From: Stegostoma tigrinum
Lineage: Eukaryota
Length of the DNA: 64,000 nt
Assembly (NCBI RefSeq): GCF_030684315.1
Contig: NC_081384.1
Location: forward strand, 13,616,818 to 13,680,817
Reading direction: 5' to 3'
Part shown: positions 7,716-47,057 of the stretch, in pieces
Layout of the letters: each line of letters starts with the position of its first letter
How positions within the stretch are numbered: position 1 is the first letter of the stretch
Program-made: the position numbers and the translations under genes
The notes under the pieces: model-generated
Seen by the model: the letters and a program-made list of their open reading frames with translations, nothing else
Told to the model about the DNA's origin: nothing
Databases searched by the model: none

Positions 7716-9008
7716 AATCCAAGCGCATGGAAAATAACAGCCAAACCTATCCAGCCTGTCCATACACGTCATCTTGCAATACCGGCAAGAAACTTGTAAC
7801 ATTTTCTGAATACAGGTCAGTCAAGGATATCAAACTATTCTTCAAAGAGCATCCATACAGAGTTCTGCACATGTCAATCTCTTAGACATGGGCTGCAGAT
7901 TCACAGTCATCAGTAACAACAGCTTGTCGTCCAACTCAGACACCAGATTGTACACCACTCAGATAACTGAGGGTGGAAAGCTCATTCATCGTGTGTTAAA
8001 TGGCCTTGTGCCTATTGGGGAGTGTAGGCATTGCTGCTTGCATCAGAAGCAGCTTTTGTGAAGCTTCTTTTTCGATAACGTTAAGGTATTATTCTGGTGA
8101 CCAAAATGAATAGGAACAGGAATAGGCAATTTAGCCAATCACGCTCTCTTCTCTATTCCATAAGGTCAGCAAGAATTTAAATAAAGAATGAAGGAATCCT
8201 GCCTCCTGGATAACTGAACATTAAACCCTAACTTGTACACAGACCTGAATAATTCAATGCTGCAGCTTCCACTGCTCACTGGGGAAAAGATATCAATCCA
8301 ATAACTCTCTGAAAGGAGACAATTCCCCTGATATGAACCATAGATGAGCGAGCCCTAATTTTTAACCTGTGGTCCCGACTCCAGGATTGAACGATGGGAC
8401 ACATACTTTCTGCATCAACAATGTCATGACCCTCTGAAACTAATGTTTTAATTAATGCCCTGATTCCACCGCATCAGGGAGGTGTCTAATACTTCCCTCC
8501 ACAACACCCAGCAGTTTGCTTCCATCAGGACATTTACTGGATCAAGCTGACTGACAAACAAGTGTTTTGCTGTACAGAGAGAAATATTAACAATATCAAT
8601 GGTCCTCGACTGGATGTGGGCAATGCCACATGACATCATTAGACAGTCTTTAAATGCAATGCAAGAGTCACAGAGACTTTCAACTATGTTGAAACTAAAA
8701 TATAGTTGGTTGTTCTTCCTCAGTTGTGCTGTTTCTTTTGAACTAGAAAGGAAGATGTGAATGCAAAGAAGGAACGGATCCAAAGGCTTCTCACAAATTG
8801 GGAATGTACGTATGCAAGCAAAAGGAGAATTTGAAGAGCTTTGGGAGAATATCATAGAAAATGAAAGGAATTGGATAGCGCTTTGAAAAAGACAAATCTG
8901 GCTTTGTGGAATGATTGGCCTCATTTGCTGCTCTGCAGATCTGAAGCAAATGTTGTGCATTCTTTGCATTATAAAGTGGAAACCCGAAATCAAATGCATA
9001 CTTGACAA

Positions 9009-9158
9009 GCAGCATCAGAGGAGCAGGAAAGCTGACGTTTCGGGTCTAGGCCCAAAACGTCAGTCTTCCTGCTCCTCTGATGCTGCTTGGCCTGCTGTGT
9101 TCATCCAGCTCTACACCTTGTTATCTCAGATTCTCCAGCAACTGCAGTTCCTACTATG
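9009..9158. mobile_element. Palindromic mini-Penelope (pLTR-only) insertion
   Basis: Inverted arms centred on gggtctaggccc. 19-bp TSD tcaaa(t/a)gcatacttgacaa at 8990-9008 and 9159-9177. Absent from paralogous spacers. Confidence 0.8.
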
Positions 9159-9553
9159 TCAAAAGCATACTTGACAACAGGGTTTTATAATATTGAAGGA
9201 CACAGGAGTTTCATTTGTCAGTCTTTCACTTTTCAAATAACTTTTTCACTACCACCAATGAGGTACTTGCCTTGGGGACGGATTCAACACTTCATATGAA
9301 TTATATAAAGCAATTTGCATAGCACTCTACCTCAGACTGAAAAACAGCAGTTCAGTCTCAAGGAAGTAATTGTAAAAAGTTATGTAATAAAATACTAATG
9401 ATAACTTATCGTTCTCTCATGACATGATTGACTCTTAAAAGCAATTAGAAAGCTTTATTAATCTAACAATCCTCACATTCCTGCACAGGCTCTGCTTTCA
9501 GCTCAGCTGTCAATCATTAACATTGCTCCTCCCAGCTGTGCAGCCACTGTCTG

Positions 9554-9725
9554 TGAACATTCCAGAAGTCTGTGGAATTCCTCCAGTGGGTGCACTGAGT
9601 CAAGTGATTCTTGTTTCAAGTTAGCCTGAGATGAGACGTCATTTATTTTCAGCTGACATGTGATAAACCCAGCAAAGTTTAGCTCATTCTGGAAATGTCT
9701 GGATTCCTGGCAGTAGAATATTTAA
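9554..9725 (+). promoter_or_regulatory. HSE/CRE-like/HSE/TATA promoter, copy 3
   Basis: GAAcaTTCcaGAA distal, TTCtgGAA proximal, TATTTAA 9719-9725. Confidence 0.8.
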
Positions 9726-9818
9726 GGTGTGTGTCCTGTGTGCTGCAGGAGGTCAGAGACTGACGACTGGGAGATCACATCAGTCAGTTTGAGAGACGTG
9801 AGAGAAGAAGCAGAGACA

Positions 9819-10478
9819 ATGCTGAGCTATCGGTCTTTCCACCCTTCACACCTGTGTCAGCAGCCTGTGTACACATTGGGGTCTGTTGAACACAGGCTCT
9901 GGGAGCCGCTTCAATGTCATGTGTGGAAACAGGTGGAAGAACGGAGAAAGAGCATGAACTTCATGAATCGAGTCCTTGAGGAGCTGACAGCAGAATTTTT
10001 CAGGGAAGTACCAAGAAGTCAGGATAAGAAACCTGACACTATCGGAGAAGGTAAAGTACAATCCGAGGAGAAGGATGGCGATGGGTTTTCTGTGTCCCTG
10101 AATGTGCAGCGCTTCTCTCCAGAAGAACTGAGGGTGAAAGTATTTGGAAGAAAAGTGCTGGTGACAGGAAAACACGAGGCGAAATGTGATGATGGCAGCA
10201 GCTCTTACAGCTACAAATATGAAGAGTTCAGGAGAGAATTCCAGCTGCCAGAGGATGTCGATGCTGAAGCTCTTCAATGCTGTTTGTCACAGGATGGTCG
10301 GTTAAAGGTTCAAGCCCCAAGCCTGGCATTGCCAGCTGTGAATGAACGGACCGTCCCCATCAACATCACCTCAGACACGACAACCACTCCCCGGCTCATT
10401 CCTGACCAAGAGGCAAAGAAACAGGAGAGTGGGAGGGATGTGGGGATCAAGAAAGATGGAGAACATATGGACAGTTAA
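9819..10478 (+). CDS. hsp30: HSP30-like copy 3 (219 aa)
   Basis: Intact ORF with alpha-crystallin domain. Confidence 0.92.
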   Translation: MLSYRSFHPSHLCQQPVYTLGSVEHRLWEPLQCHVWKQVEERRKSMNFMNRVLEELTAEFFREVPRSQDKKPDTIGEGKVQSEEKDGDGFSVSLNVQRFSPEELRVKVFGRKVLVTGKHEAKCDDGSSSYSYKYEEFRREFQLPEDVDAEALQCCLSQDGRLKVQAPSLALPAVNERTVPINITSDTTTTPRLIPDQEAKKQESGRDVGIKKDGEHMDS

Positions 10479-11667
10479 GAATTTGTCTGAATGAATGTCG
10501 AAACATGTAGTAATTGTTGCAACGCAGCAAACAATGTCTGTCAATGTACACTGAAAATAAAAATTTTGTTGTGTTAACTGTCTTGAGCATGAATAATGGT
10601 ACTGTGCTATTATAAACAATTCATGTGGATTATTTATACATGTTTGCATATTGAATCAATAAATAGTTTTGAAAGTTAACAATCCTGATTTTGCCTTCTT
10701 ATTTGATCAAAACAAAAGTACTACAATACTACAAAGAATCTTCACTCAAACTTACATTATTTTCAGTTAAGGTAAAGAGACCTTTTATGTGGGATTAAAT
10801 TAAAACAGAGAGCAGAAAATCAGTTGGTCAAGATTGGCCCTGATCTAAACTCAGATTATGACTAAATATAGTCATAGAGTCATGAAGTTATGCAGCACAG
10901 AAACATACCCTTTGTTCTAACTCAACCATGACCAGCAGGTATGCCAAACGTAACTCGTCCCATTTGCCTGTGTTTGGTCCATATCTTGCTCAAATTTTCC
11001 TATTCATGCACATTTCCAAATATCTTTAAATATTCTAACTGTACCTGCACCTACCACGTTCTCTGGCAGCTCATTCCATTCTCACACTACCCGCTGTGTG
11101 GAAAAATTGTCCCTCAGGTCCCTTTTAAAAAGTTCCTGTTGCCCCTTGAACCAATGCTCTCGAGCTTTGGACTCCCCAACCATTGGAATAAGATCTTGAT
11201 GATTCACCTTTTCTATGCCTCTCATGATTTTAGAAAACTTCGTAAGGTCACCCCTCAGCATATTGCGTACAGTTCTTGTCACCACACCAGCAGAAGGACT
11301 CAGATGCTTTGGAGAGGATACAGAAAGGCTTTTCCAGGAAACTGCCTTGTATGGGCAATTTTAGCCCAGAGTGGAAGGACAAAATATGTCAGCACAGGTT
11401 TGGAGAGCTGAGGGGCCAGGTCCTGTGCTGTATTGAGCATTGTTTGTCAGGAGCTCCTGGAAACAAAAAGTCCTCGCCTATCGAGCCTCTCCCTACAACT
11501 CAATCCTCTCGTGTTAGTAACATCCTCATAAATTGTTTGTGTATCTAGGTCAGTCAAAGATATTAAATTCATGTTGAGGGACCATCATTGAAGAGCTTTG
11601 TGCACCTCAATCGCACAGATGTTTGCAGATTTACAAATCATCAGCAACAAGGGCTTGTCATCCAACT

Positions 11668-12640
11668 CCCTCAGGGTATGTCTTCAGCCCAACCATCATC
11701 AGCTGCTTCATCAATGACCTTCCCCGCCATTGTCAGGTCAGAAGTGGGAATGCTCACCTACGATTGTGCAGTTTTCAGCACCGTTTGCGATTTCTCAGAT
11801 ACTGAAGCAGGCACATTCAAATGCAGCAAGATCTGGACAATCTGGCTTGGCCTGTCAAATGGCAAGTGACATTTGTGCAACACAAATGCCAGCCTATCAC
11901 CATCACCAATAAGAGCCATTGTAACCACTGCTCCTTAACATTCAATGGTGGTGCCATGACCTATACCTCACTATCAACATCCTGAGCCTTATCATTGACC
12001 AGAAACTCAACTCGATTCATCACATAAACACAGTGGCTACAAGAGCAGTCCAGAAGCTGGGAATGCTATGGCAGGAAACTCTCTCCTGACTCCTCAAAGC
12101 CTGTCCACCATCTACAAGGCATGTGTCAGGGCTGTGACGGAATGCCCTCCACTTGCCTGGATGAGTTCGGCTCCAACAACACATGAGAAGTTTGACACCA
12201 TCCAGCACAAAGCAGCGCACTCGATTCGCACCACATCCATAAGCACCCACTCTGTCCAACCCCCACGCTCAGTACCAGCAGTGTCTAATATCTGCAGGAT
12301 GTGCTGCAGAAATTCACTAAAGATCCTCAGACAGCACTTTCCAAACACACATCCACTTCCATCCAAGGGCAGCAGACAAATGGGAACACCACCACCTTCA
12401 ACTTCCCCTCCCAGCCCCTCATCATCCTGACTTGGAAATATATCGGTGTTCCTTCACTGTCATTGGATCAAAATCCCAGAATTGTCTCCCAATTGGTCAT
12501 GTGGGTGAATCCACGGCAGGTGGAGCGCAGATGTTCAAGAAGGCATCTCACCACCACCTTCTCAAGGGAAACCAGGTACGGGCAAGAAATGCTGGCCAGA
12601 CTGCCACTCCCACAGCCCACAAAAGAGTGGAAAATATAAC
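11668..12640 (+). mobile_element. Degenerate CR1/L2-group LINE 3' fragment (RT C-terminus + 3' tail), spacer A3
   Basis: PQG..SCFINDLP..QQDLDNI..KWQV..HLLTPQSLSTIYKA.VR..MEY.PLAW RT motifs, frameshifted. Empty site seen at ~7937. Confidence 0.8.
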
Positions 12641-14056
12641 TGAGGCACCAGGCTGTATACCACTTCTTTACTGGATGGTGGAAAGTACGTTTACTGTGGG
12701 TTAAATGATCTTGTGCCTCTCGGGGAGTGTGAGGAAAGCTGACTGCATCAAAAGCAGCTTTTATCAAGTTTCTGTTCCCGTAATATTAATCATACTATTC
12801 AATAGGAATAAACAATAGGAACAGCAGCAGGCAATTTAAACAACAAACTCACTTCTCTATTTCATGTGATCACCAATGATTTAACCATAGACTGAAGAAA
12901 TCCTGCCTCCCTCTAAACAATCACTCCCCTTTTCAACCAGAACCTGTATATGGGGAAGAGGTAACTAACTTGTAATTCTCTAAAAAGAGACAATTGCCCG
13001 GATAAGAACCTCAGATGGGCAAGACCTTAATTTAAAACTGTGTTCCCGACACCAGGACTTCTGACCGATGTGACACATCCTTCCAGCATCAACCATGTCA
13101 AGACCCTCTGTCTCTAATGTTTCAATTAACAACCCTGATTCCACAGCATCAGGAAGGTGTCTAATACTTCCTTCCACATCACTCAGCAGTTTGCTTCCAC
13201 CAGAACATTTACTGCATCACACTGACTGACAAACAAGTGTTTGCTGTACAGAGAGAAATATTTACAATATCAATGGTCCTCAATTGGATGTGGGCAATGC
13301 CACATGACATCCATTAGACATTCTTTAAATGCAACGCAAGAGTCACAGAGACTTTCAATGATGTTGAAACTAAAATAGAATTAGTTATTCTTCTGTTGTG
13401 CTGTTTCTTGTGGACTTGGATGTATGTTGTGAATGCAAAGAGGGAGAAGATCCAAGGACTTCTCACAAACTGGAATTGGACATGTACTTGCAAAAGAAGA
13501 ATTTGCAGAGCTTCGGGGAAAAAACATTGGAGGTGCAAGGAATTGGACTGCGCTTTGAAAGAGCTGAATCTGGCCTGGTGGACTGATTGGCCTCATCTGT
13601 TGCTCTGCAGATCTAAAGCTGTTGTTGAGCATTCTTCGTTTTATAAAGTGCAGATCCTACATCAAACACCTTATCAGCAACAGGGTTTTATAACATTGAA
13701 GGACACAACAACTTCATGTTTAAGTCTTTCGCTTTTCAAACTCATTCTTCATCATCAGCAGGGAGGTGTTCTCCTTCAGGACAGATTCAACAGTTTGTTC
13801 AAAAAGTACAAATCTAGTTGTATTTCATTCCACCTGAAGCTGAAAAGTAGCACTTCAATCTCAAGGAAGTAATTGGAAACAGTAATGTTACAAAACACAA
13901 ACACTGCATCTTCATTCTGTATTGACATGATTGACTCTTAAAAGAAATTAAAAATCTTTTGTCATCTAACAATCCTCACTTTCCTGCCCAGACTCTGCTC
14001 TCCGCTCAGCTGTCATTCATTAACATTGCTCCTCCCAGCTGTGCAGTCACTGCCTG

Positions 14057-14229
14057 TGAACATTCCGGAAATCCCTGGAAATCCTCCAGTCGGTATCACT
14101 GTGTCGTGTCATTCCTATTTAAAGGAAGCCTGAGATGAGACGTCATTTATTTTCAGCTCACATGTGATAAACCCAGCAAAGTTTAGCTCATTCTGGAAAT
14201 GTCTGGATTCCTGGCAGTAGAATATATAA
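14057..14229 (+). promoter_or_regulatory. HSE/HSE/TATA promoter, copy 4
   Basis: GAAcaTTCcgGAA distal, TTCtgGAA proximal, TATATAA. Confidence 0.8.
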
Positions 14230-14322
14230 CGTGTGTGTCCTGTGTGCTGCAGGAGATCAGAGACTGACGACTGGGAGATCACATCAGTCAGTCTGAGAGA
14301 CGTGAGAGAAGAAGCAGAGACA

Positions 14323-14994
14323 ATGCTGAGCTATCGGTCTTTCCACCCTTCACGCCTGTGCCAGCAGCCTGTGTACACATTGGGGTCTGTTGAACACAGG
14401 CTCTGGGAGCCGCTTCAATGTAATGTGTGGAAACAGGTGGAAGAAGCGAGAAAGAGCATGAACTTCATGAATCGAGTCCTTGAGGAGCTGACAGCAGAAC
14501 TTTTCGAGGGAATTCCAAGAAGTCAGGATAACAAACCTGACAGTATCGGAGAAGGTAAAGTACAATCCTTGGAGAAGGATGGAGATGGGTTTTCTGTGTC
14601 CCTGAATGTGCAGCACTTCTCTCCAGAAGAACTGAGGGTGAAAGTATTTGGAAGAAAAGTGCTGGTGACAGGAAAACACGAGGCGAAATGTGATGATGGC
14701 AGCGGCTCTTACAGCTACAAATATGAAGAGTTCAGGAGAGAATTCCAGCTGCCAGAGGATGTCGATGCTGAAGCTCTTCAATGCTGTTTGTCGCAGGATG
14801 GTCGGTTAAAGGTTCAAGCCCCAAGCCTGGCATTGCCAGCTGTGAATGAACGGACCGTCCCCATCAACATCATCTCAGACACGACAACCACTCCCCGGCT
14901 CATTCCTGACCAAGAGGCAAAGAAACAGGAGAGTGGGAGGGATGTGGGGAACAAGAAAGATGGAGAACATATGGACAACAAAGACTTTGATTGA
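14323..14994 (+). CDS. hsp30: HSP30-like copy 4 (223 aa)
   Basis: Intact ORF ending ..EHMDNKDFD. Confidence 0.92.
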   Translation: MLSYRSFHPSRLCQQPVYTLGSVEHRLWEPLQCNVWKQVEEARKSMNFMNRVLEELTAELFEGIPRSQDNKPDSIGEGKVQSLEKDGDGFSVSLNVQHFSPEELRVKVFGRKVLVTGKHEAKCDDGSGSYSYKYEEFRREFQLPEDVDAEALQCCLSQDGRLKVQAPSLALPAVNERTVPINIISDTTTTPRLIPDQEAKKQESGRDVGNKKDGEHMDNKDFD

Positions 14995-16162
14995 ATGAAC
15001 GTTTTAATGTATAGGAATTATTGCAACGCAGCAATCAATATCTGTCAATGTACACTGAAAATAAAAATTTTGTTGTATTAATTGTCTTGAGCATAGATAA
15101 GGGTACTGTGCTATTATAAACATTCATGTGGAGTATTTATAAAGAAGTATGCATATTGGATCAATAAATAGTTTTGAAAGTTAATAATCCTGATTGTGCC
15201 CTCTTATTTGATCAAAACAAAAGTAATACATTACTGATAATCTTCATTCAAAATTACATTATTTTCAGTTAAGGTAAAGAGACCTCCTATGTGGGATTAA
15301 ATTAAAACACAGGGCAGAAAATCAGGTGGTCGAGATTTGCCTCAATCTAAACTCCGACTCATATAGTCATCGAGTCATGAAGTTATGCAGCACAGAAACA
15401 TATCCTTTGGTCCAACCTGACCGTGCCCACCAGGTATGCCAAACGTAACTCGTCCCATTTGCCTGCGTTTGGTACATATCTCGCTCACCTTTTCCTATTC
15501 ATGCACATCTCCAAATATCTTTAAATATTCTAACTGTACCTGCACCTACCACGCTCTCTGGCAGCTCATTCATTTCTCACAATACCCGCTGTGTGGAAAC
15601 ATTGTCCTTCAGGTCTCTTTTAAAAAGTTCCGGTTGCTGCTTGAACCTATGCTCTCTAGCTTTGGGCTCCCAAACCCTTGGAATAAGATCTTGGCGATCC
15701 ACCTTTTCTGTGCCTCTCATGATTTTATAAACTTCCGTAAGGTCACCCCTCAGCATATTGCATACAGTTCGTGTCACCACACCTGCAGAAGGACTCAGAT
15801 ACTTTGGAGAGGATACAGAAAGGTTTTACCAGGATTTTACCTTGGATGGGCAATTTTAGCCCAGAGTGGAAGGACAAAATGTGTCAGCACAGGTTTGGAG
15901 AGCTGAGGGGCAGGGTCATGTGCTGCATTATGCGATGTTCATACGGAGCTGGTGGAAACAAAAAGTCCTCGCCTATCGAGCCTCTCCCTACAACTCAATC
16001 CTCTCATGTAAGCAACATTCTTCCAAATTTTTTCTGTCTCTAGTACAGTCGAAGATATTAAATTCATGTTGAGGGACCATCATTGAAGTGCTTTGTGCAC
16101 ATCAATCGATCAGATGTTTGCAGATTTACAAATCATCAGCAACAAGGGCTTGTCATCCAACA

Positions 16163-17135
16163 CCCTCAGGGTATGTCTTCAGCCCAACCATCTTCAGCTG
16201 CTTCAACAATGACCTTCCCCGCCATTGTCAGGTCAAAAGTGGGAATGTTCACCTACGATTGCGCAGTTTTCAGCACGGTTTGCGATTTCTCAAATACTGA
16301 AGCAGGCATATTCAAATGCAGCAAGATCTGGACAATCTGGCTTGGCCTGTCAAATGGCAAGTGGCATTTGTGCAACACAAATGCCAGCCTATCACCATCA
16401 CCAATAAGAGCCATTGTAACCACTGCTCCTTAACATTCAATGGTGGTGCCATGACCTATACCTCACGATCAACATCCTGAGCCTTATCATTGACCAGAAA
16501 CTCAACTTGATTCACCACATAAACACAGTGGCTACAAGAGCAGGCCAGGAGCTGGGAATACTACGGCAGGAAACTCTCTCCTGACTCCTCAAAGCCTGTC
16601 CACCATCAACAAGGCACGAGTCAGGGCTGTGACGGAATACCCTCCACTTGCCTGGATGAGTCCGGCTCCAACAACACATGAGAATTTTGACACCATTCAG
16701 CACAAAGCAGAGCACTCGATTCGCACCACATCCATAAGCACCCACTCCGTCCAACCCCCACGCTCAGTACCAGCAGTGTCTAATATCTGCAGGATGTGCT
16801 GCAGAAATTCACTAAAGATCCTCAGACAGCACTTTCCAAACACACATCCACTTCCATCCAAGGGCAGCAGACAAATGGGAACACCACCACCTTCAACTTC
16901 CCCTCCAAGCCCCTCATCACCCTGACTTGGAAATATATCGGTGTTCCTTCACTGTCATTGGATCAAAATCCCAGAATTGTCTCCCAAGTGGTCGTGTGGG
17001 TGAATCCACGGCAGGTGGTGCGCAGACGTTCAAGAAGGCATCTCACCACCACCTTCTCAAGGGAAATGAGGTACGGGCAAGAAATGCTGGCCAGACTGCC
17101 ACTCCCACAGCCCACAAAAGAGTGGAAAATATAAC
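16163..17135 (+). mobile_element. Same CR1/L2-group LINE fragment, spacer A4
   Basis: Paralog of 11668-12640. Confidence 0.8.
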
Positions 17136-18544
17136 TGAGGCACCAGGTTGTATACCACTTCTTTACAGGATGGTGGAAAGCACGTTTACTGTGCGTTAAA
17201 TGATCTTGTGCCTCTCGGGGAGTGTGAGGAAAGCTGACTGCATCAAAAGCAGCTTTTATCAAGTTTCTGTTCCCATAACATTAATCATACTATTCAATAG
17301 GAATAAACAATAGAAACAGCAGCAGGCAATTTAAACAACAAACTCACTTCTCTATTTCATGTGATCACCAATGATTTAACCATAGACTGAAGAAATCCTG
17401 CCTCCCTCTAAACAATCACTCCCCTTTTCAACCAGAACCTGTATATGGGGAAGAGATAACTAACTTGTAATTCTCTAAAAAGAGACAATTGCCCGGATAA
17501 GAACCTCAGATGGGCAAGACCTTAATTTAAAACTGTGTTCCCGACACCAGGACTTCTGACCGATGTGACACATCCTTCCAGCATCAACCATGTCAAGACC
17601 CTCTGTCTCTAATGTTTCAATTAACAACCCTGATTCCACAGCATCAGGAAGGTGTCTAATACTTCCTTCCACATCACTCAGCAATTTGCTTCCATCAGAA
17701 CATTTACTGCATCACACTGACATTCATACAAGTGTTTGGCTGTACAGAGAGAAATATTTACAATATCAATGGTCCGCAATTGGATGTGGGCATTGCCACA
17801 TGACATCCATTAGACATTCTTTAAATGCAACGCAAGAGTCACAGAGACTTTCAACGATGTTGAAACTAAAATATAATGAGTTATTCTTCTTCTGTTGTGC
17901 TGTTTCTTGTGGACTGGGATGTATGTTGTGAATGCAAAGAGGGAGAAGATCCAAAGGCTTCTCACAAACTGGAATTGGACATGTACTTGCAAAAGAAGAA
18001 TTTGCAGAGCTTCGGGGAAAAAACATTGGAGGTGCAAGGAATTGGACAGCACTTTGAAAGAGCTGAATCTGGCCTGGTGGACTGATTGGCCTCATCTGTT
18101 GCTCTGCAGATCTAAAGCTGTTGTTGAGCATTCTTTGTTTTATAAAGTGCAGATCCTACATCAAACACCTTATCAGCAACAGGGTTTTATAACATTGAAG
18201 GACACAACAACTTCATGTTTAAGTCTTTCGCTTTTCAAACTCTTTCTTCATCATCAGCAAGGAGGTATTCTCCTTCGGACAGATTCAACAGTTTGTTCAA
18301 AAAGTACAAATCTAGTTGCATTTCACTCCACCTCAAGCTGAAAAGTAGCACTTCAATCTCAAGGAAGTAATTGGAAACAGTAACGTTGCAAAACACAAAA
18401 ACTGCATCTTCATTCTGTATTGACATGATTGACTCTTTTACATATTTAAAAACGTTTCTCTTTTCACTTTCCTGCACAGACTCTGCTTTCCGCTCAGCTG
18501 TCAATCATTAACATTGCTCCTCCCAGCTGTGCAGTCACTGCCTG

Positions 18545-22115: not shown

Positions 22116-23500
22116 TGAGGCACCAGGCTCTACACCACCTGGTTACTGGATGGTGGAAAGCACATTCATCGCGGGGTAAATGGCCGTGTGCCTATCCTGG
22201 TGTGTGTGCAAAACTGATTGCATCAAAAACAGCTTTTATCAAGTTTCTGTTTCGATAATACTAACTGTCCAATTCTAGTGATCGTCAAGAACAGGACTGA
22301 GGATAATGGACTGAAGAAATCCTGCCTCCTGGATAACTGACACTCCCTGTTTAAGCCCTAACCTGGACACAGACCTGAATAATTCAATGTTGCAGCTTCC
22401 TTTGCTCATTGCAGGAGAAACAGCAAACTGATAGCCCTCTGAAAGGAGACAAAACCCTGATCTGACCCTTAAATGCCTGAGCCCTTAGTATTAAACTGTG
22501 CTCCTGATGCCAAGATTTCTGAGCGATGTGACACATCCTTTCAGCATTGAGAATGACACGACCCTCTGAATCTAATGTATCAATGGACAGCCATCATTCC
22601 CAAGCATCAGGAAGGTGTCTCATGCTTCCCTCCACGTCTCCCAGCAGTTTGCTTCCATCAGTACATTTACTGCATCACACTGACTGCAAATAAGTGGTTT
22701 GCTGAACAGTGAGAAATATTAAAAATGTCCCCAAACTGATGTGAGCAATGCAACAAGACATCCGTTAGAAATTCATTAAATGCTGCGCACAAGTCACAGA
22801 GGCTGAACTTATGTTGAACCTAAAATATAGTTGGTTATTCTTCTACTTGTGAACTGAAAAGGAAGCTGTAAATGCAAAGAGGGAGCAGTTCCAAAGGCAT
22901 CTCACAAACTGGAATTTGTCATTGTACTTGCAAAAGGAGAATTCGCAAAGCTTTGGGAAAAGAGCACGGGAGATGCACGGGAGCATTGGAAGAGAGTAAT
23001 CTGGCCTGGTGGACGGATTGGCCTCATTTGCTGCTCTGCAGATCTAAAGCAATTGTTGCGCATTCTGCATTTTATGAAGTGTAAATCCCAAATCAAACAC
23101 ATTATGGGCAAATTGGGTTTTGAAGATTTGAAGAACAATGGAAGAACGCAGCAGCTTCATTTCTAAATGTTTAATTTTCGAATTTACTTTTTATTTATCA
23201 GCAAAGAGCTACTTGCCTTGAGGACGGATTGAACACTTTACTGAAGTGAAATAAACCTATTTTCGTTTTAATCCATCTCAAAATGATAAATAATATATCA
23301 ATCGCAAGGATGCCACTGAGAACAGGAATGATAGAAAAACCAAACACAGTCTTTTCATTCTGACAGGACATGAGTTAATGTTTCAAACAATTAAAACCTT
23401 TTCTCTGTTTCAACAATCCTCACTTTCCTGCACAGACTCTGCTTTCCGCTCAGCTGTCAATCATTAACATTGCTCCTCCCAGCTGTGCAGCCACTGCCTG

Positions 23501-23766: not shown

Positions 23767-24351
23767 ATGCTGAGCTATCGGTCTTTCCACCCTTCACACC
23801 TGTGTCAGCAGCCTGTGTACACATTGGGGTCTGTTGAACACAGGCTCTGGGAGCCACTTCAATGTAATGTGTGGAAACAGGTGGAAGAAGCGAGAAAGAG
23901 CATGAACTTCATGAATCGAGTCCTTGAGGAGCTGACAGCAGAACTTTTCGAGGGAATTCCAAGAAGTCAGGATAACAAACCTGACAGTGTCAGAGAAGGT
24001 AAAGGACAATCCTTGGAGAAGGATGGAGATGGGTTTTCTGTGTCCCTGAATGTGCAGCACTTCTCCCCAGAAGAACTGAGGGTGAAAGTATTTGGAAGAA
24101 AAGTGCTGGTGACAGGAAAACACGAGGCGAAATTTGATGATGGCAGCGGCTCTTACAGCTACAAATATGAAGAGTTCAGGAGAGAATTCCAGCTGCCAGA
24201 GGATGTCGATGCTGAAGCTCTTCAATGCTGTTTGTCACAGGATGGTCGGTTAAATGTTCAAGCCCCAAGCCTGGCATTGCCAGCTGTGAATGAATGGACC
24301 GTCCCCATCAACATCACCTCAGACAGCAACCACTCCCCGGCTCATTCCTGA
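23767..24351 (+). CDS. hsp30: HSP30-like copy 6, C-terminally frameshifted (194 aa)
   Basis: Net 2-bp deletion (gacacgacaacc to gacagcaacc) after VPINITSD gives the tail SNHSPAHS*. Confidence 0.8.
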   Translation: MLSYRSFHPSHLCQQPVYTLGSVEHRLWEPLQCNVWKQVEEARKSMNFMNRVLEELTAELFEGIPRSQDNKPDSVREGKGQSLEKDGDGFSVSLNVQHFSPEELRVKVFGRKVLVTGKHEAKFDDGSGSYSYKYEEFRREFQLPEDVDAEALQCCLSQDGRLNVQAPSLALPAVNEWTVPINITSDSNHSPAHS

Positions 24352-28260: not shown

Positions 28261-28845
28261 ATGCTGAGCTATCGGTCTTTCCACCCTTCACACCTGTGTC
28301 AGCAGCCTGTGTACACATTGGGGTCTGTTGAACACAGGCTCTGGGTGCCGCTTCAATGTCATGTGTGGAAAGAGGTGGAAGAAGCGAGAAAGAGCATCAA
28401 CTTCATGAATCGAGTCCTTGAGGAGCTGACAGCAGAATTTTTCAGGGAAGTACCAAGAAGTCAGGATAACAAACCTGACACTATCGGAGAAGGTAAAGGA
28501 CAATCCTTGGAGAAGGATGGAGATGGGTTTTCTGTGTCCCTGAATGTGCAGCACTTCTCTCCAGAAGAACTGAGGGTGAAAGTATTTGGAAGAAAAGTGC
28601 TGGTGACAGGAAAACACGAGGCGAAATGTGATGATGGCAGCGGCTCTTACAGCTACAAATATGAAGAGTTCAGGAGAGAATTCCAGCTGCCAGAGGATGT
28701 CGATGCTGAAGCTCTTCAATGCTGTTTGTCACAGGATGGTCGGTTAAATGTTCAAGCCCCAAGCCTGGCATTGCCAGCTGTGAATGAACGGACCGTCCCC
28801 ATCAACATCACCTCAGACAGCAACCACTCCCCGGCTCATTCCTGA
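28261..28845 (+). CDS. hsp30: HSP30-like copy 7, C-terminally frameshifted (194 aa)
   Basis: Same 2-bp deletion as copy 6. Confidence 0.8.
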   Translation: MLSYRSFHPSHLCQQPVYTLGSVEHRLWVPLQCHVWKEVEEARKSINFMNRVLEELTAEFFREVPRSQDNKPDTIGEGKGQSLEKDGDGFSVSLNVQHFSPEELRVKVFGRKVLVTGKHEAKCDDGSGSYSYKYEEFRREFQLPEDVDAEALQCCLSQDGRLNVQAPSLALPAVNERTVPINITSDSNHSPAHS

Positions 28846-36061: not shown

Positions 36062-37447
36062 TGAGGCACCAGGCTGTACTCCACCTGGTTACTGGATGGG
36101 GGAAAGCACATTCATCGCGGGGTAAATGGCCGTGTGCCTATCCTGGTGTGTGTGCAAAACTGATTGCATCAAAAACAGCTTTTATCAAGTTTCTGTTTCG
36201 ATAATACTAACTGTCCAATTCTAGTGATCGTCAAGAACAGGACTGAGGATAATGGACTGAAGACATCCTGCCTCCCGGATAACTGACACTCCCTGTTTAA
36301 GCCCTAACCTGGACACGGACCTGAATAATTCAATGTTGCAGCTTCCTTTGCTCATTGCAGGAGAAACAGCAAACTGATAGCCCTCTGAAAGGAGACAAAA
36401 CCCCTGATCTGACCCTTAAATGCCTGAGCCCTTAGTATTAAACTGTGCTCCTGATGCCAAGATTTCTGAGCGATGTGACACATCCTTTCAGCATTGACAA
36501 TGACAAGACCCTCTGAATCTAATGTATCAATAGACAGCCATTATTCCCAAGCATCAGGAAGGTGTCTCATGCTTCCCTCCACGTCACCCAGCAGTTTGCT
36601 TCCATCAGTACATTTACTGCATCACACTGACTGCAGATAAGTGGTTTGCTGAACAGTGAGAAATATTAAAAATGTCCCCAAACTGATGTGAGCAATGCAA
36701 CAAGACATCCGTTAGAAATTCATTAAATGCTGCGCACAAGTCACAGAGGCTGAACTTATGTTGAACCTAAAATATAGTTGGTTATTCTTCTACTTGTGAA
36801 CTGAAAAGGAAGCTGGAAATGCAAAGAGGGAGCAGATCCAAAGGCATCTCACCAACTGGAATTTGTCATTGTACTTGCAAAAGGAGAATTCGCAAAGCTT
36901 TGGGAAAAGAGCACGGGAGGTGCACGGGAGCATTGGAAGAGAGTAATCTGGCCTGGTGGACGGATTGGCCTCATTTGCTGCTCTGCAGATCTAAAGCAAT
37001 TGTTGCGCATTCTGCATTTTATGAAGTGTAAATCCCAAATCAAACACATTATGGGCAAATTGGGTTTTGAAGATTTGAAGAACAATGGAAGAACGCAGCA
37101 GCTTCATTTCTAAATATTTAATTTTCGAATTTACTTTTTATTTATCAGCAAAGAGCTACTTGCCTTGAGGACGGATTGAACACTTTACTGAAGTGAAATA
37201 AACCTATTTTCGTTTTAATCCATCTCAAAATGATAAATAGTATATCAATCTCAAGGATGCCACTGAGAACAGGAATGATAGAAAAGCCAAACACAGTCTT
37301 TTCATTCTGACAGGACATGAGTTAATGTTTCAAACAATTAAAACCTTTTCTCTGTTTCAACAATCCTCACTTTCCTGCACAGACTCTGCTTTCCGCTCAG
37401 CTGTCAATCATTAACATTGCTCCTCCCAGCTGTGCAGCCACTGCCTG

Positions 37448-37713: not shown

Positions 37714-38298
37714 ATGCTGAGCTATCGGTCTTTCCACCCTTCACGCCTGTGTCAGCAGCCTGTGTACACTTTGGGGTCTGTTGAACACAGGCTCTGGGAG
37801 CCGCTTCAATGTCATGTGTGGAAACAGGTGGAAGAAGCGAGAAGGAGCATGAACTTCATGAATCGAGTCCTTGAGGAGCTGACAGCAGAACTTTTCGAGG
37901 GAATTCCAAGAAGTCAGGATAACAAACCTGACAGTGTCAGAAAAGGTAAAGGACAATCCTTGGAGAAGGATGTCGATGGGTTTTCTGTGTCCCTGAATGT
38001 GCAGCACTTCTCTCCAGAAGAACTGAGGGTGAAAGTATTTGGAAGAAAAGTGCTGGTGACAGGAAAACACGAGAAGAAATGTGATGATGGCAGCGGCTCT
38101 TACAGCTACAAATATGAAGAGTTCAGGAGAGAATTCCAGCTGCCAGCGGATGTCGATGCTGAAGCTCTTCAATGCTGTTTGTCACAGGATGGTCGGTTAA
38201 ATGTTCAAGCCCCAAGCCTGGCATTGCCAGCTGTGAATGAACGGACCGTCCCCATCAACATCACCTCAGACAGCAACCACTCCCCGGCTCATTCCTGA
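37714..38298 (+). CDS. hsp30: HSP30-like copy 9, C-terminally frameshifted (194 aa)
   Basis: Same 2-bp deletion as copies 6 and 7. Confidence 0.8.
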   Translation: MLSYRSFHPSRLCQQPVYTLGSVEHRLWEPLQCHVWKQVEEARRSMNFMNRVLEELTAELFEGIPRSQDNKPDSVRKGKGQSLEKDVDGFSVSLNVQHFSPEELRVKVFGRKVLVTGKHEKKCDDGSGSYSYKYEEFRREFQLPADVDAEALQCCLSQDGRLNVQAPSLALPAVNERTVPINITSDSNHSPAHS

Positions 38299-39550: not shown

Positions 39551-40523
39551 CCCTCAGGGTATGTCTTCAGCCCAACCATCATCAGCTGCTTCATCAATGA
39601 CCTTCCCCGCCATTGTCAGATCAGAAGTGGGAATGTTCACCTACGATTGCGCAGTTTTCAGCACGGTTTGCGATTTCTCAGATACTGAAGCAGGCACATT
39701 CAAATGCAGCAAGATCTGGACAATCTGGCTTGGCCTGTCAAATGGCAAGTGACATTTGTGCAACACAAATGCCAGCCTATCACCATCACCAATAAGAGCC
39801 ATTGTAACCACTGCTCCTTAACATTCAATGGTGGTGCCATGACCTATACCTCACTATCAACATCCTGAGACTTATCATTGACCAGAAACTCAACTTGATT
39901 CACCACATAAACACAGTGGTTACAACAGCAAGCCAGAAGCTGGGAATGCTATGGCAGGAAACTCTCTCCTGACTCCTCAAAGCCTGTCCACCATCTACAA
40001 GGCACGAGTCAGGGTTGTGATGGAATGCCCTCCACTTGCCTGGATGAGTCCGGCTCCAAAAACACATGAGAAGTTTGACACCATCCAGCACAAAGCAGCG
40101 CACTCGATTCGCTCCACATCCATAAGCACCCACTCCATCCAACCCCCACGCTCAGTACCAGCAGTGTCTAATATCTGCAGGATGTGCTGCAGAAATTCAC
40201 CAGAGATCCTCAGACAGCACTTTTCAAACACACATCCACTTCCATCCAAGGGCAGCAGACAAATGGGAACACCACCAACTTCAACTTCCCCTCCCAGCCC
40301 CTCATCATCCTGACTTGGAAATATATCGGTGTTCCTTCACTGTCATTGGATCAAAATCCCAGAATTGTCTCCCAAGTGGTCGTGTGGGGGAAACCATGGC
40401 AGGTGGTGCGCAGACGTTCAAGAAGGCATCCCACCACCACCTTCTCAACTGAAACCAGGTACGGGCAAGAAATGCTGGCCAGACTGCCACTCCCACAGCC
40501 CACAAAAGAGTGGAAAATATAAC
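39551..40523 (+). mobile_element. CR1/L2-group LINE fragment, spacer A9
   Basis: Paralog of 11668-12640. Confidence 0.8.
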
Positions 40524-41941
40524 TGAGGCACCAGGCTGTATACCACTTCTTTACTGGATGGTGGAAAGTACGTTTACTGTGCGTTAAATGATCTTGTGCC
40601 TCTCGGGGAGTGTGAGGAAAGCTGACTGCATCAAAAGCAGCTTTTATCAAGTTTCTGTTCCCATAATATTAATCATACTATTCAATAGGAATAAACAATA
40701 GGAACAGCAGCAGGCAATTTAAACAACAAACTCACTTCTCTATTTCATGTGATCACCAATGATTTAACCATAGACTGAAGAAATCCTGCCTCCCTCTAAA
40801 CAATCACTCCCCTTTTCAACCAGAACCTGTATATGGGGAAGAGATAACTAACTTGTAATTCTCTAAAAAGAGACAATTGCCCGGATAAGAACCTCAGATG
40901 GGCAAGACCTTAATTTAAAACTGTGTTCCTGACACCAGGACTTCTGACCGATGTGACACATCCTTCCAGCATCAACCATGTCAAGACCCTCTGTCTCTAA
41001 TGTTTCAATTAACAACCCTGATTCCACAGCATCAGGAAGGTGTCTAATACTTCCTTCCACATCACTCAGCAATTTGCTTCCATCAGAACATTTACTGCAT
41101 CACACTGACATTCATACAAGTGTTTGGCTGTACAGAGAGAAATATTTACAATATGAATGGTCCGCAATTGGATGTGGGCATTGCCACATGACATCCATTA
41201 GACATTCTTTAAATGCAACGCAAGAGTCACAGAGACTTTCAACGATGTTGAAACTAAAATATAATGAGGAATTCTTCTTCTGTTGTGCTGTTTCTTGTGG
41301 ACTGGGATGTATGTTGTGAATGCAAAGAGGGAGACGATCCAAAGGCTTCTCACAAACTGGAATTGGACATGTACTTGCAAAAGAAGAATTTGCAGAGCTT
41401 CGGGGAAAAAACATTGGAGGTGCAAGGAATTGGACAGCGCTTTGAAAGAGCTGAATCTGGTCTGGTGGACTGATTGGCCTCATCTGTTGCTCTGCAGATC
41501 TAAAGCTGTTGTTGAGCATTCTTCGTTTTATAAAGTGCAGATCCTACATCAAACACCTTATCACAACAGGGTTTTATAACATTGAAGGACACAACAACTT
41601 CATGTTTAAGTCTTTCGCTTTTCAAACTCTTTCTTCATCATCAGCAGGGAGGTATTCTCCTTCAGGACAGATTCAACAGTTTGTTCAAAAAGTACAAATC
41701 TAGTTGCATTTCACTCCACCTCAAGCTGAAAAGTAGCACTTCAATCTCAAGGAAGTAATTGGAAAGAGTAATGTTGCAAAACACAAACACTGCATCTTCA
41801 TTCTGTATTGACATGATTGACTCTTTTACATATTTAAAAACGTTTCGCTTTTCACAATCCTCACTTTCCTGCACAGACTCTGCTTTCCGCTCAGCTGTCA
41901 TTCATTAACATTGCTCCTCCCAGCTGTGCAGTCACTGCCTG

Positions 41942-42114
41942 TGAACATTCCGGAAATCCCTGGAAATCCTCCAGTCGGTATCACTGTGTCGATTCATTCC
42001 TGTTTCAAGTTAGCCTGAGATGAGACGTCATTTATTTTCAGCTGACATGTGATAAACCCAGCAAAGTTTAGCTCATTCTGGAAATGTCTGGATTCCTGGC
42101 AGTAGAATATTTAA
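41942..42114 (+). promoter_or_regulatory. HSE/HSE/TATA promoter, copy 10
   Basis: Same motifs; TATTTAA. Confidence 0.8.
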
Positions 42115-42207
42115 GGTGTTTGTCCTGTGTGCTGCAGGAGGTCAGAGACTGACGACTGGGAGATCACTTCAGTCAGTTTGAGAGACGTGAGAGAAGAAGC
42201 AGAGACA

Positions 42208-42879
42208 ATGCTGAGCTATCGGTCTTTCCACCCTTCACACCTGTGTCAGCAGCCTGTGTACACATTGGGGTCTGTTGAACACAGGCTCTGGGAGCCGCTT
42301 CAATGTCATGTGTGGAAAGAGGTGGAAGAAGCGAGAAAGAGCATGAACTTCATGAATCGAGTCCTTGAGGAGCTGACAGCAGAACTTTTCGAGGGAATTC
42401 CAAGAAGTCAGGATAACAAACCTGACAGTGTCAGAGAAGGTAAAGGACAATCCTTGGAGAAGGATGGAGATGGGTTTTCTGTGTCCCTGAATGTGCAGCA
42501 CTTCTCTCCAGAAGAACTGAGGGTGAAAGTATTTGGAAGAAAAGTGCTGGTGACAGGAAAACACGAGAAGAAATGTGATGATGGCAGCAGCTCTTACAGC
42601 TACAAATATGAAGTGTTCAGGAGAGAATTCCAGCTGCCAGAGGATGTCGATGCTGAAGCTCTTCAATGCTGTTTGTCACAGGATGGTCGGTTAAAGGTTC
42701 AAGCCCCAAGCCTGGCATTGCCAGCTGTGAATGAACGGACCGTGCCCATCAACATCACCTCAGACACGACAACCTCTCCCCGGCTCATCCCTGACCAGGA
42801 GGCAAAGAAACAGGAGAGTGGGAGGGATGTGGGGAACAAGAAAGAAGGAGAACCTACGGACAGCAAAGTCTTTGTTTGA
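42208..42879 (+). CDS. hsp30: HSP30-like copy 10 (223 aa)
   Basis: Intact ORF ending ..EPTDSKVFV. Confidence 0.92.
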   Translation: MLSYRSFHPSHLCQQPVYTLGSVEHRLWEPLQCHVWKEVEEARKSMNFMNRVLEELTAELFEGIPRSQDNKPDSVREGKGQSLEKDGDGFSVSLNVQHFSPEELRVKVFGRKVLVTGKHEKKCDDGSSSYSYKYEVFRREFQLPEDVDAEALQCCLSQDGRLKVQAPSLALPAVNERTVPINITSDTTTSPRLIPDQEAKKQESGRDVGNKKEGEPTDSKVFV

Positions 42880-44524
42880 ATGAACTTTTGAAGATGTAAG
42901 AATTGTTCAAAAGCAACAATGAATTATTGTCAATGTGTGATAAAAATAAAAATTTTGTTAAATTCGTTGCTTCAAACTTAGAAAACAGTACCGTGCAATT
43001 ATCGGAAATGGAGTGGATTATTTATATATGTGTGTGCATTGGACCAATAAATAATTTTGTAAGTTAACAATCCTGATTTTGCCATCTTCCTTGATGGAAA
43101 CAAAAGTGAAACATTACTGATAATCTTCACGCAAACTTACATTATTCTCAGTTAAGGGGAAGAGACCTTTTATGTGGGATTAAATTAATACACAGGGCAT
43201 AAAATCACACTGTCCAGATCTGCCTAAATGAAAATTAATAGACAATAGGTGCTGGGGTAGGCCTTTCGGCCCATCGAGCCAGCACCACCATTCATTATGA
43301 TCATGGCTGATCATCCACAAACAGTATCCTAACATAGACAATAGACAATTGGTGCTGGAGTAGGCCATTCAGCCCTTAAGTAGATATAGTAACAGAGTCA
43401 TGAAGGTATGCGGCACAGAAACATACCCTTCAGTCCAACTTGACCGTGCCCACCAGGTATGCCAAATGTAACTTGCCCCATTTGCCTGCGTTTGGTCCAT
43501 ATCTCGCTCACCTTTTCCTATTCATGCACATTTCCAAATATCTTTAAATATTGTAACTGTACCTGCACCTACCACTCTCTCTGGCAGCTCATTCCATTCT
43601 CACACTACCCGCTGTGTGGAAACATTGTCCCTCAGGCCTCCTTTAAATACTTAGCATCTCCCCTTGAACTTATGCCCTCTAGCTTTGCACGCCCCTACCC
43701 TTGCACTAAGATCTTTGCGATTCACCGTACCTATGCCTCTCATGATTTTATAAACCTTCATAAGTTCACCCCTCAGCTTATTAAATATAGTTCTGGTCAC
43801 CACACAAGCAGAATGATTTTCGTGCTTTGGAGAGGGTCCAGAAAAGTTTTATCAGGATGCTGCTTTATATGGGGGATATTAGCCATGAGGAAAAGTTGGA
43901 TCTATTAGGTTTGTTTTCAGTAGAATACAGGTAGTTGAGGTTTATATGATTGTGAATGCCATGAATAGAATGTAAAGTTTGAGAATGTTTTCACAGAGTG
44001 GAGGCACGAATTAACTGGGGATACAGGTTCAAGATGAGAGGGCGGATGTTTATAAGATTTGTGCGATGCAGGTTTATCACATAAATGGTGGGGAATGCCC
44101 AGAACATGCTGCCACAGGAGGTGGTGGATGCAGACACAACAGCAGCATTCGAGAAACACCTGAACGAGTACATGCATAGGACATGAATAGAGGATACAGA
44201 TCCTGTCAGTAACGAGACCGAGAGTGTGGAAGGGCAAAAGGTGTCAGCACATGCTTGGAGGGGTGAGGGGCAGGGTCCTGTGCTGCATTGTCCGATGTTC
44301 ATCCAAAGCTCCTGGATAAAAAATGTCCTCGCCTATTGAACATCTCTCTACAACTCAAGCCTCCTGTGAAAGCAACATCTTGTAAATTTTTCCTGCATCC
44401 AGGTCAGTTAAAGATATCAATCTAATGTTCAGGGACCATCATTGAAGAGCTTTGTTCACCTTGATTGCAGAGATATTCCCCATAGATTGACAAATCATCA
44501 GCAACAAGGGCTTGACTTCCAACT

Positions 44525-45514
44525 TCCTCAGGGTAGTGTGCTGAACCCAAGCATCTTCAGTTGCTTCATCAATGACCTTCCCTCCATTGTCAGGTCAGAA
44601 GTGGGAATGTACGCCAACACATTGGTTGCACAATGTTCAGCACCACTCGCGACTCCTCAGGTACTGAAACAGTCCATGTTCAAACGCAACAAGATCTGGA
44701 CAATATCCAGGCTTGGCTTGTCAAATGGCAAGTGATAATCGCGCCACAAAAATGCCAGCCTATCACCATCACCAATAAGAGACAATCTATCCACTGGGCC
44801 TTTATATTAATGGTGTTACCATGGCTTATCCCCCACTATCAATAACCTGGGGCTTATCATTGACCAGAAACTCAACTAGACTCACCACATAAACACAATG
44901 GCTACAAGAGTATGTCAGAAGCTAGGAACTCCATGGCGAAAAACTCACCTCCTGACTCGTCAAAGCCTGTCCACCATCGACAAGGCACGAGTCAGGAGTG
45001 TGATGGAATACTCGCCACTTGCCTGGTTGAATGCAGCTCCAACAACACACGGGAAGTCTGACACCCTCCAGGACAAAGCAGCCCACTTGATTGGTACCAC
45101 ATCCACAAGCATCCATTGCCTCCAAATCCCACACTCAGTACCAGCAGTGTGTAATATCTGCAAGATCTACTGCAGAATTCCACCAAAGATCCTTAGGCAG
45201 CACCTTCCAAATGCATGATCACTTCCACCTAGAAGGACACGGGCAGCAGACATACGGGGATACCATCATCAGCAAGTTCCCCTCCTAGTCACTTACCATC
45301 CTGACTTGGAACTATATTGGTGTTCCTTCACTGTCAGTGGGCCACAATCCCAGAATTGTCTCCCAATTGGCACTGGGGGTGAATTCACAGCAGGTGGTGC
45401 ACAGAGGTTCACGAAGGCAGCTCACCACCACCTTCTGAAGGGAAATGAGGTACAGGCAAGAAATGCTGACCAGACCGCCATTCCCAACGCCCACAAAAGA
45501 GTGGAAAAAATAAC
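44525..45514 (+). mobile_element. CR1/L2-group LINE fragment, spacer B10
   Basis: Paralog of 21126-22115. Confidence 0.8.
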
Positions 45515-46456
45515 TGAGGCACCAGGCTCTACACCACCTGGTTACTGGATTGTGGAAAGCACATTCATCACGGGGTAAATGGCCTTGTGCCTATCCTGGT
45601 GTGTGTGCAAAACTGATTGCATCAAAAACAGCTTTTATCAAGTTTCTGTTTCGATAATACTAACTGTCCAATTCTAGTGATCGTAAAGAACAGGACTGAG
45701 GATAATGGACTGAAGAAATCCTGCCTCCCGGATAACTGACACTCCCTGTTTAAGCCCTAACCTGGACATGGACCTGAATAATTCAATGTTGCAGCTTCCT
45801 TTGCTCATTACAGGAGAAACAGCAAACTGATAGCCCTCTGAAAGGAGACAAAACACCTGATCTGATCCTTAGATGCCTGAGCCCTTAGTATTAAACTGTG
45901 CTCCTGATGCCAAGATTTCTGAGCGATGTGACACATCCTTTCAACATTGACAATGACAGGTGCCTCATGCTTCCCTCCACGTCAACCAGCACTTTGCTGC
46001 CATCAGTACATTTACTGCATCACACTGACTGCAAATAAGTGGTTTGCTGAACAGTGAGAAATATTAAAAATGTCCCCAAACAGATGTGAGCAATGCAACA
46101 AGACATCCGTTAGAAATTCATTAAATGCTGCGCACAAGTCGCAGAGGCTGAACTTATGTTGAACCTAAAATATAGTTGGTTATTCTTCTACTTGTGAACT
46201 GAAAAGGAAGCTGGAAATGCAAAGAGGGAGCAGATCCAAAGGCATCTCACCAACTGGAATTTGTCATTGTACTTGCAAAAGGAGAATTCGCAAAGCTTTG
46301 GGGAAAGAGCACGGGAGGTGCACGGGAGCATTGGAAGAGAGTAATCTGGCCTGGTAGACAGATTGGCCTCATTTGCTGCTCTGCAGATCTAAAGCAATTG
46401 TTGCGCATTCTGCATTTTATGAAGTGGAAATCCCAAATCAAACACATTATGGGCAA

Positions 46457-46655
46457 GATAATAAAATGTGAGGCTGGATGAACACAGCAGGCCAAGTAGC
46501 ATCTCAGGAGCACAAAAGCTGACGTTTCGGGCCTAGACCCTTCATCAGGGTCCTGATGTTGTGCTCCTGAGATGCTGCTTGGCCTGCTGTGTTCATCCAG
46601 CCTCACATTTTATTATCTTGGAATTCTCCAGCATCTACAGTTCCCATTATCTCTG
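46457..46655. mobile_element. Young palindromic mini-Penelope (pLTR-only) insertion
   Basis: Near-perfect inverted arms (~46454-46515 and 46559-46620). 13-bp TSD acattatggg(c/a)aa at 46444-46456 and 46656-46668. Empty sites in B5 (~23100) and B8 (~37050). Confidence 0.85.
46521..46548 (-). ncRNA. Minimal hammerhead ribozyme core motif of Penelope pLTR
   Basis: Minus strand reads CUGAUGA-aGGG-ucuagg-CCC-GAAAC-GUC: conserved core boxes, stem II and GUC cleavage triplet. Stem I pairing is not established. Confidence 0.6.
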
Positions 46656-47057
46656 ACATTATGGGAAAATTGGGTTTTGAAGATTTGAAGAACAATTGAA
46701 GAACGCAGCAGCTTCACTTCTAAATGTTTAATTTTAGAATTTACTTTTTATTTATCAGCAAAGAGCTACTTGCCTTGAGGACGGATTGAACACTTTACTG
46801 AAGTGAAATAAACCTATTTTCGTTTTAATCCATCTCAAAATGATAAATAGTATATCAATCTCAAGGATGCCACTGAGAACAGGAATGATAGAAAAACCAA
46901 ACACAGTCTTTTCATTCTGACAGGACATGAGTTAATGTTTCAAACAATTAAAACCTTTTCTCTGTTTTAACAATCCTCACTTTCCTGCACAGACTCTACT
47001 TTCCGCTCAGCTGTCAATCATTAACATTGCTCCTCCCAGCTGTGCAGCCACTGCCTG

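Follow-up and report, generated by a model that had tools for sequence, protein, structure and literature searches.

Two short inserts of a Penelope-like retroelement, here called A and B, were found at the same aligned nucleotide upstream of two paralogous small heat-shock genes of Stegostoma tigrinum. Both lie within a stretch of 64,000 nucleotides (NC_081384.1, positions 13,616,818 to 13,680,817), called the window below, which contains a tandem array of such genes. A comparison of the inserts, their target duplications and their flanks gave good support for two independent insertions made at different times. We hold it to be probable, if not strongly so, that the inserts are retrotranspositions by two subfamilies of an abundant endonuclease-bearing element, probably of the Neptune clade, into a spot that is a better-than-average target, with chance accounting for the rest.

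Two independent insertions share one aligned left junction

The upstream regions of 12 genes were aligned with MAFFT after both inserts and one duplication copy had been taken out. The last target base before insert A (position 9008) and the last target base before insert B (position 46456) fell in one column, and the A and B sequences were aligned without gaps near the junction. The distance from the junction to the ATG was 641 bp for A and 655 bp for B. The initial annotation of this DNA, made from the letters alone, had proposed a shared nucleotide about 0.65 kb upstream of the ATG, and both points were borne out. The target duplications were 19 bp (A) and 13 bp (B) long, as had been stated, each with one mismatch; their perfect cores were 13 bp and 10 bp, respectively, and the two duplications overlapped in the alignment. 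The CAA microhomology with the element claimed for both left junctions was found as well. This CAA is derived from the target because the empty sisters of B carry it. Since it also matches the element, each nick can be placed only within a 4-position window, and the shared column carries this 3-nt ambiguity. The coincidence was limited to the left junctions: the right junctions were offset by 4 to 6 nt, or by 0 if duplication A is taken as its 13-bp perfect core.

Nine spacers were clearly homologous around the site. They formed three lineages, A (upstream of gene 9819), U-type (five units) and B-type (three units), with identities of 97-99% within the U-type, 98-99% within the B-type and 69-75% between lineages. 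The seven spacers other than A and B were all empty, as claimed, but they represent two lineages (five U-type and two B-type) and so do not amount to seven independent trials. The more distant spacer of gene 5773 (~60% identity), an eighth such spacer, was also empty. Upstream of genes 3017 and 54785, no clearly homologous site was found in the alignment of the 12 upstream regions (35-48% identity).

Within the aligned 13-mer, the left and right copies were identical at A and differed at one position at B, and A differed from B by 5-6 positions. Each duplication therefore arose after the flanks had diverged. The inserts belonged to different subfamilies, c1/c2/c5 for A and c3/c6/c7 for B, and had different arm lengths and internal joins. 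Their right arms differed at 17 of 94 aligned positions and grouped with different copies in a tree of the element copies of the window (support for the B clade, 0.97). Insert B differed from the copy at 53844-53932 (c3) by no more than 1-2 changes, and insert A was nearest to the copy at 473 (c1; 9 of 116 positions of the right arm differed). In the spacer tree, B, next to two empty sisters 98% identical to its spacer, had a terminal branch of 0.02, and A had a branch of 0.14. The proposal of independent, parallel insertions differing in subfamily and breakpoints was thus well supported by the locus-specific substitutions in the duplications, the two subfamilies and the two empty sisters of B.

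A single ancestral insertion that most paralogues have since lost, and whose sequence was then changed by gene conversion with other element copies, would account for the identical left junction and orientation of A and B. Conversion does occur in the array, where the proximal promoters of the A and B units (9648-9818 and 47153-47323) were 98% identical, compared with 67-80% for the distal spacers; conversion between Alu subfamilies has also been documented (PMC8230782; here and below, statements on cited papers refer to the available part of each source). Judging from these identities, concerted evolution ends well short of the insertion site. Moreover, both duplication copies at each locus bear locus-specific substitutions, the arm lengths, internal joins and duplication lengths are unlike between A and B, and a precise loss would be needed both in the U lineage and in two sisters nearly identical to B. 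An ancestral insertion is therefore largely refuted, and we rejected it as very improbable. The initial annotation had anticipated two objections, an ancestral insertion and an offset between the aligned sites; the former fails, and the alignment gave no offset at the left.

We judged it still less probable that repeat sequence was placed at one or both sites by an artefact of assembly. The array is highly repetitive, and read contigs covered A only. These came from 4 of 13 sequencing runs, were mapped to positions 8000-13850 and were mostly repeat derived (run X1 covered only repeats); 15 of 2659 joints and 24 of 5752 loose ends were listed. Among the listed records, none bridged A under a 31-letter rule, none skipped insert A and none fell at a U site. 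However, both inserts had proper duplications, private mismatches and unique internal joins, and one X7 contig (9131-9530) crossed the right junction of A with one difference and 28 letters on the element side. In two runs of a related organism, the flanks of A were covered at ~90% identity.

Structure of the inserts and a possible course of insertion

Insert A (9009-9158, 150 bp) and insert B (46457-46655, 199 bp) were made up of pseudo-long terminal repeat (pLTR) sequence only. In each, two pLTR fragments formed a head-to-head palindrome whose outer ends were the element 3' ends, and each is an ordinary inverted-pLTR fragment of a Penelope-like element. Insert A folded into a hairpin (z, -9.5). 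Its arms switched inside the quasi-palindromic stem II of a hammerhead motif (9042-9053), and its right arm, which was without the CUGAUGA half of the hammerhead, stopped at a preferred terminus (contig loose ends at 9157). The left arm of insert B had the sequence of a candidate complete minimal hammerhead core at 46548-46521, read by eye against the features given in PMC4209133, and differed from c6 at 7 of 87 positions. The right arm of B differed at 1 of 60 positions from c3 and at 1 of 62 from the left arm of B. An Rfam search of the insert hammerhead gave no match at the gathering score, and the folds of the hammerhead monomers were not significant (z, -1.15 and +0.95). Relative to the predicted hammerhead cleavage site (46521), the right arm of B (46559) started 4-5 nt downstream, as though copying had run up to the 5' end of an RNA that had cleaved itself.

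From this architecture we infer the following course of events. The GIY-YIG endonuclease would make two nicks, one per strand and 13-19 nt apart, and each of the 3' ends so exposed would prime reverse transcription at internal start sites of the pLTR RNA. Microhomology would then join the two short cDNAs into a head-to-head palindrome flanked by target duplications. That one top-strand nick position was used twice may be due to its conserved CAA end, which can pair with UUG at an RNA start site; a probable second reason would be the AWCCC half-sites that bracket the spot on both strands (see below). The enzyme of the anole element PAc is described as cutting and extending both strands from internal RNA starts, and two Penelope enzymes are reported to cleave element-derived DNA (PMC11167929). 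In the mapped contigs, two preferred element ends were found, at 9126-9128 and 9157, which matched the left arm of B and both right arms. These two ends fit the internal initiation on both strands that was seen in vitro for the anole element (PMC11167929).

Chance and target-site preference

About 3050 non-coding bases could be aligned between the A and B units (3210 columns less ~160 of insert). With uniform insertion, the probability of a match was 0.07% when either end had to agree exactly, 0.46% with a tolerance of 3 nt and 1.0% when overlap of the duplications sufficed. In the array, two of the two insertions coincided. For the A/B locus taken alone, the coincidence is beyond chance.

The A/B pair was, nevertheless, picked out of a large scan. 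Illustrative estimates for the whole genome, calculated with assumed densities and assumed amounts of duplicated DNA, ranged from 0.01 to 14 coincident pairs. Chance alone therefore remains a serious rival: with an abundant element, many paralogous segments and a large scan, such an independent pair would sometimes appear. The element family is extremely abundant, since the summed contig depth over the insert was 8.3 million in run X7 compared with 4-14 in neighboring bins (a depth, not a copy number), and the window held 7 insertions of the family, A, B and five outside the array. Weighing against chance alone are the low uniform probabilities given above and the motif and microhomology signals, which appeared in held-out insertions, too. 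We therefore regard chance alone as quite possible without being probable.

The sequence AWCCC flanked A and B to the left and to the right, and it flanked three of the five other insertions on a single side, 2-11 nt outside the duplication edge. All 368 short motifs common to the flanks of A and B were scored on the five other insertions, with 20,000 random sets. AWCCC ranked first, being found at 3 of the 5 held-out insertions compared with a background of 4.4% (nominal p, 0.0008; family-wise p, 0.034). An inverted AWCCC pair 25 nt apart occurred once each in the A and B-type spacers, at the insertion site, with a background of 1 in 32 kb; no such pair was present in the one U-type spacer counted. 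The insertion site was the sole two-sided AWCCC site of the A spacer (3217 bp with the insert removed). Counted singly, 2 of the 9 motif copies in the A spacer and 2 of the 13 in the B-type spacer were at the site. If insertions follow AWCCC, the chance of a shared site would rise to roughly 10-15%. The element's own pLTR also starts with ATCCC followed by A's. Apart from the motif, junction microhomology amounted to 16 nt over nine junctions, compared with 6.2 nt expected (p, 0.004), with 1-3 nt at 8 of the 9 junctions; minus both CAA junctions, 10 nt over seven remained (p, 0.047). Both counts were made by eye and left out the insertions at 53844 and 54076.

These results give weak to moderate support to a target-site preference, which is a better lead than heat-shock chromatin. 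The part of the initial annotation that spoke of a target-site hotspot thus stood as a preference, but a hotspot is not demonstrated with two events. Several points weigh against the preference and the insertion course proposed above. Besides there being just two events at the site, AWCCC was noticed after the other targets had been viewed, so that the correction covers the choice of motif and the test was not blind. Two of the five other insertions, c3 (53844) and c4 (54076), were without AWCCC, and c3 is in the same subfamily as B. The spacing between the motif and the duplication edge varied from 2 to 11 nt. Among the loose ends listed, the consensus past the preferred ends was T-rich, with a low agreement of 0.36-0.47 and no fixed motif. 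The left arm of A ended at an RNA position outside the listed preferred ends. Finally, according to the available text of PMC11167929, the anole enzyme prefers ATT, and its RNA starts are not homologous to the cut DNA.

Two other features of the site were tried and dropped. A hairpin or cruciform at the 60-nt site was not distinctive, as 38% (A), 74% (U) and 56% (B sister, window centered 13 nt too far left) of windows folded as well, and in overall likeness to the pLTR 3' end the site did not stand out (8-99% of windows scored as well). The site was mildly AT-rich (62-67%), and the background for a candidate AAA next to the nick was about 5%.

A more specific explanation seems doubtful, though worth stating: a dimeric endonuclease may recognize AWCCC half-sites similar to the ATCCC with which the element's pLTR begins, so that an inverted pair 25 nt apart would form a sequence-defined hotspot, with pairing between target and RNA fixing the priming nucleotide. 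If so, a vertebrate Neptune-type element would follow a target rule unlike the ATT preference and homology-free start reported for the Poseidon element, and the inserts would be prone to homoplasy. If the motif alone is real, it would provide a testable target rule for a class of elements with a poorly known integration mechanism, make the U-type spacer, which is empty and without the half-site, a natural matched control, and caution against the use of such inserts as homoplasy-free markers. If the motif is not real, the pair would be a coincidence among very many copies.

Heat-shock chromatin

Accessible chromatin upstream of heat-shock promoters, also put forward in the initial annotation, could draw the element much as Drosophila hsp promoters draw P elements. 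P insertions are described at one promoter position in up to eight populations (PMC1592238), and accessibility has been invoked for a cluster of roo insertions (PMC6415491). However, the P-element precedent concerns proximal promoters (PMC1592238). In the array, heat-shock elements were located at about -265 and -133 and a TATA-like box at -102 from the ATG. The insertion site is farther upstream than all of these, about 375-390 bp from the distal heat-shock element and about 540-550 bp from the TATA-like box. None of the insertions in the window was in a proximal promoter. The array held 2 of the 7 insertions on 43.2 of 64 kb (67%), a one-sided depletion with a p of 0.04, or 0.46 with recent duplicates collapsed. 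Furthermore, accessibility would not fix a nucleotide. In 12 Drosophila genomes, Hsp70 promoters were enriched, and single-copy heat-shock promoters were not generally so, as far as the available part of PMC2793543 reports. The chromatin explanation was thus left unsupported by the position of the site and the lack of enrichment in the array, and we consider it improbable.

Comparison with known systems

The A/B case was compared with what is known of related systems. In L1 twin priming, both target strands prime, the first of them on the poly(A) tail; the product carries an inversion, and microhomology is found where the second strand primes. The double priming, inversion and microhomology are features that the A and B inserts appear to share; unlike L1 products, they lack poly(A), and each of their arms starts within the pLTR.

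Inverted pLTRs, a tail and short duplications are the standard form of Penelope-like elements (PMC8557442 and PMC3846280). As described there for endonuclease-bearing members, the family has an inverted 5'-truncated pLTR, an optional tail of 30-40 bp and short duplications, together with a GIY-YIG fragment in longer copies and a candidate minimal hammerhead motif (read by eye here). Its duplications in the window were 7-19 bp, compared with 8-10 bp in rotifers, and A and B differ from those elements in being pLTR-only palindromes. The Poseidon element PAc of Anolis (PMC11167929) is similar in that both strands are cut and extended, internal RNA starts yield two preferred ends and the flanks are AT-rich. 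It is unlike the present element, probably Neptune, in its ATT preference and homology-free start, as opposed to the junction microhomology and candidate AWCCC found here.

Parallel and near-parallel Alu insertions (PMC554112 and PMC8230782) likewise show members of different subfamilies that inserted independently at the same homologous locus; they are rare and have been read as hotspots. They concern orthologous loci in different primates and the L1 machinery, whereas here the two loci are paralogues within a single genome and the element is one with a GIY-YIG endonuclease. Stress genes are also described as having been hit repeatedly in their upstream regions by P (PMC1592238) and by roo at CG18446 (PMC6415491), with up to eight populations per position for P, 20 insertions for roo, and promoter regions as targets, in contrast to the two events found here, outside the heat-shock-element region and with no regional enrichment. 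Parallel insertion is therefore a known, rare phenomenon, and the A/B case is real. For Penelope-like elements at paralogous sites, no report appeared among the open-access listings searched, most subscription journals being outside the scope.

The element family in the window

Four of the 7 insertions in the window were inverted-pLTR structures with duplications, and the element copies were 5' truncated (Table 1). GIY-YIG (PF01541) was matched in the open reading frame adjoining the c6 pLTR (E, 1.2e-4; 22.8 bits versus a cutoff of 22.6). The GIY-YIG fragment of 57847-59631, accompanied by a pLTR of the same family, ties the mini-inserts to an endonuclease-bearing Penelope-like element. The two decayed copies at 473-1995 and 57847-59631 each kept 3 of the 4 cysteines of a linker of the C-x4-C-x2-C type, with different ones lost. 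A CX2-5CxxC linker upstream of GIY-YIG is described for the Neptune and Nematis clades (PMC8557442), and the vertebrate clades of Penelope-like elements are given as Neptune and Poseidon (bioRxiv). From these residues, the element is probably a Neptune, the clade preferred because Neptune and Poseidon are those listed for vertebrates.

The right arms at 1616 and about 59190 started at nearly one element position, beside the ATCCC-A4 motif at the pLTR start. The heat-shock gene on the minus strand (54162-54785) has an older, divergent copy (54043-54181, 14-bp duplication) inserted in its 3' end, which shortens the gene product to 207 amino acids (aa). With exact and degenerate element patterns, 0 loci were found in metagenome contigs, 0 in viral contigs and 0 in prokaryote genomes. 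Three viral loci obtained with a shorter element pattern were dropped as chance matches, as the best 15 alignment rows consisted of the 18-base query match alone.

Table 1. Coordinates of the inserts, their target sites and related features in the window
Feature	Position	Strand	Remarks
Left target duplication copy, A	8990..9008	+	19 bp, 1 mismatch; terminal CAA also matches element
Right target duplication copy, A	9159..9177	+	Pairs with 8990-9008
Left target duplication copy, B	46444..46456	+	13 bp; terminal CAA also matches element
Right target duplication copy, B	46656..46668	+	1 mismatch
AWCCC upstream of target A, candidate half-site	8981..8985	+	Ends 4 nt before duplication
Inverted AWCCC downstream of target A	9180..9184	-	
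AWCCC upstream of target B	46430..46434	+	Ends 9 nt before duplication
Inverted AWCCC downstream of target B	46672..46676	-	
Insert A, left arm	9009..9044	-	Inverted pLTR fragment, 3' end faces left
Insert A, right arm	9042..9158	+	pLTR 3' part with long end (tail), subfamily c1/c2/c5
Insert B, left arm	46457..46550	-	Inverted pLTR fragment, short end
Insert B, fold-back copy of 46543-46549	46552..46558	+	7 bp, joins the two arms
Insert B, right arm	46559..46655	+	pLTR 3' part with long end, young subfamily c3/c6/c7
Empty U-type site, example	13660..13700	+	Others near 18179, 27620, 32114, 41561; upstream AWCCC broken
Empty B-type site in sister unit	23085..23119	+	Another near 37045; pre-insertion state of B with two-sided motif
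Family insertion	473..1995		11-bp duplication; inverted structure, carries endonuclease fragment
Family insertion	53844..53932		7-bp duplication, possibly spurious
Family insertion	54076..54168		14-bp duplication, 1 mismatch
Family insertion	56748..56865		14-bp duplication
Family insertion	57847..59631	.	15-bp duplication, inverted pLTR; minus arm encodes GIY-YIG fragment (PF01541)
Intact small heat-shock gene 3' of insert A	9819..10478	+	HSP20 family, PF00011, E 2.5e-18
Small heat-shock paralogue 3' of insert B	47324..48010	+	In-frame stop at codon 81

The heat-shock gene array and its spacers

The small heat-shock genes of the array, which we take to be hsp30 genes, were intronless; 11 were on the plus strand and 1 was on the minus strand. 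A PF00011 match was obtained in both full-length genes scanned. The paralogue downstream of insert B has a stop at codon 81, and relaxed constraint may have aided the persistence of that insert.

A high-copy insertion of ~1 kb (about 11680-12640 and homologues) was common to the spacers of eight U- and B-type genes and was not in the A spacer. A 290-bp block was common to the A and B-type spacers and was not in the U-type spacers. The spacers are therefore mosaic, since these two segments are distributed differently among A, B-type and U-type. Three paralogues (23767-24351, 28261-28845 and 37714-38298) had the same shortened 194-aa product with a changed C terminus, although the spacers in front of them were of different types, a pattern suggestive of gene conversion or unequal crossing-over. 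Downstream of the array, a divergent fragment of the heat-shock gene family was located at 61698-61915 (~71% identity).

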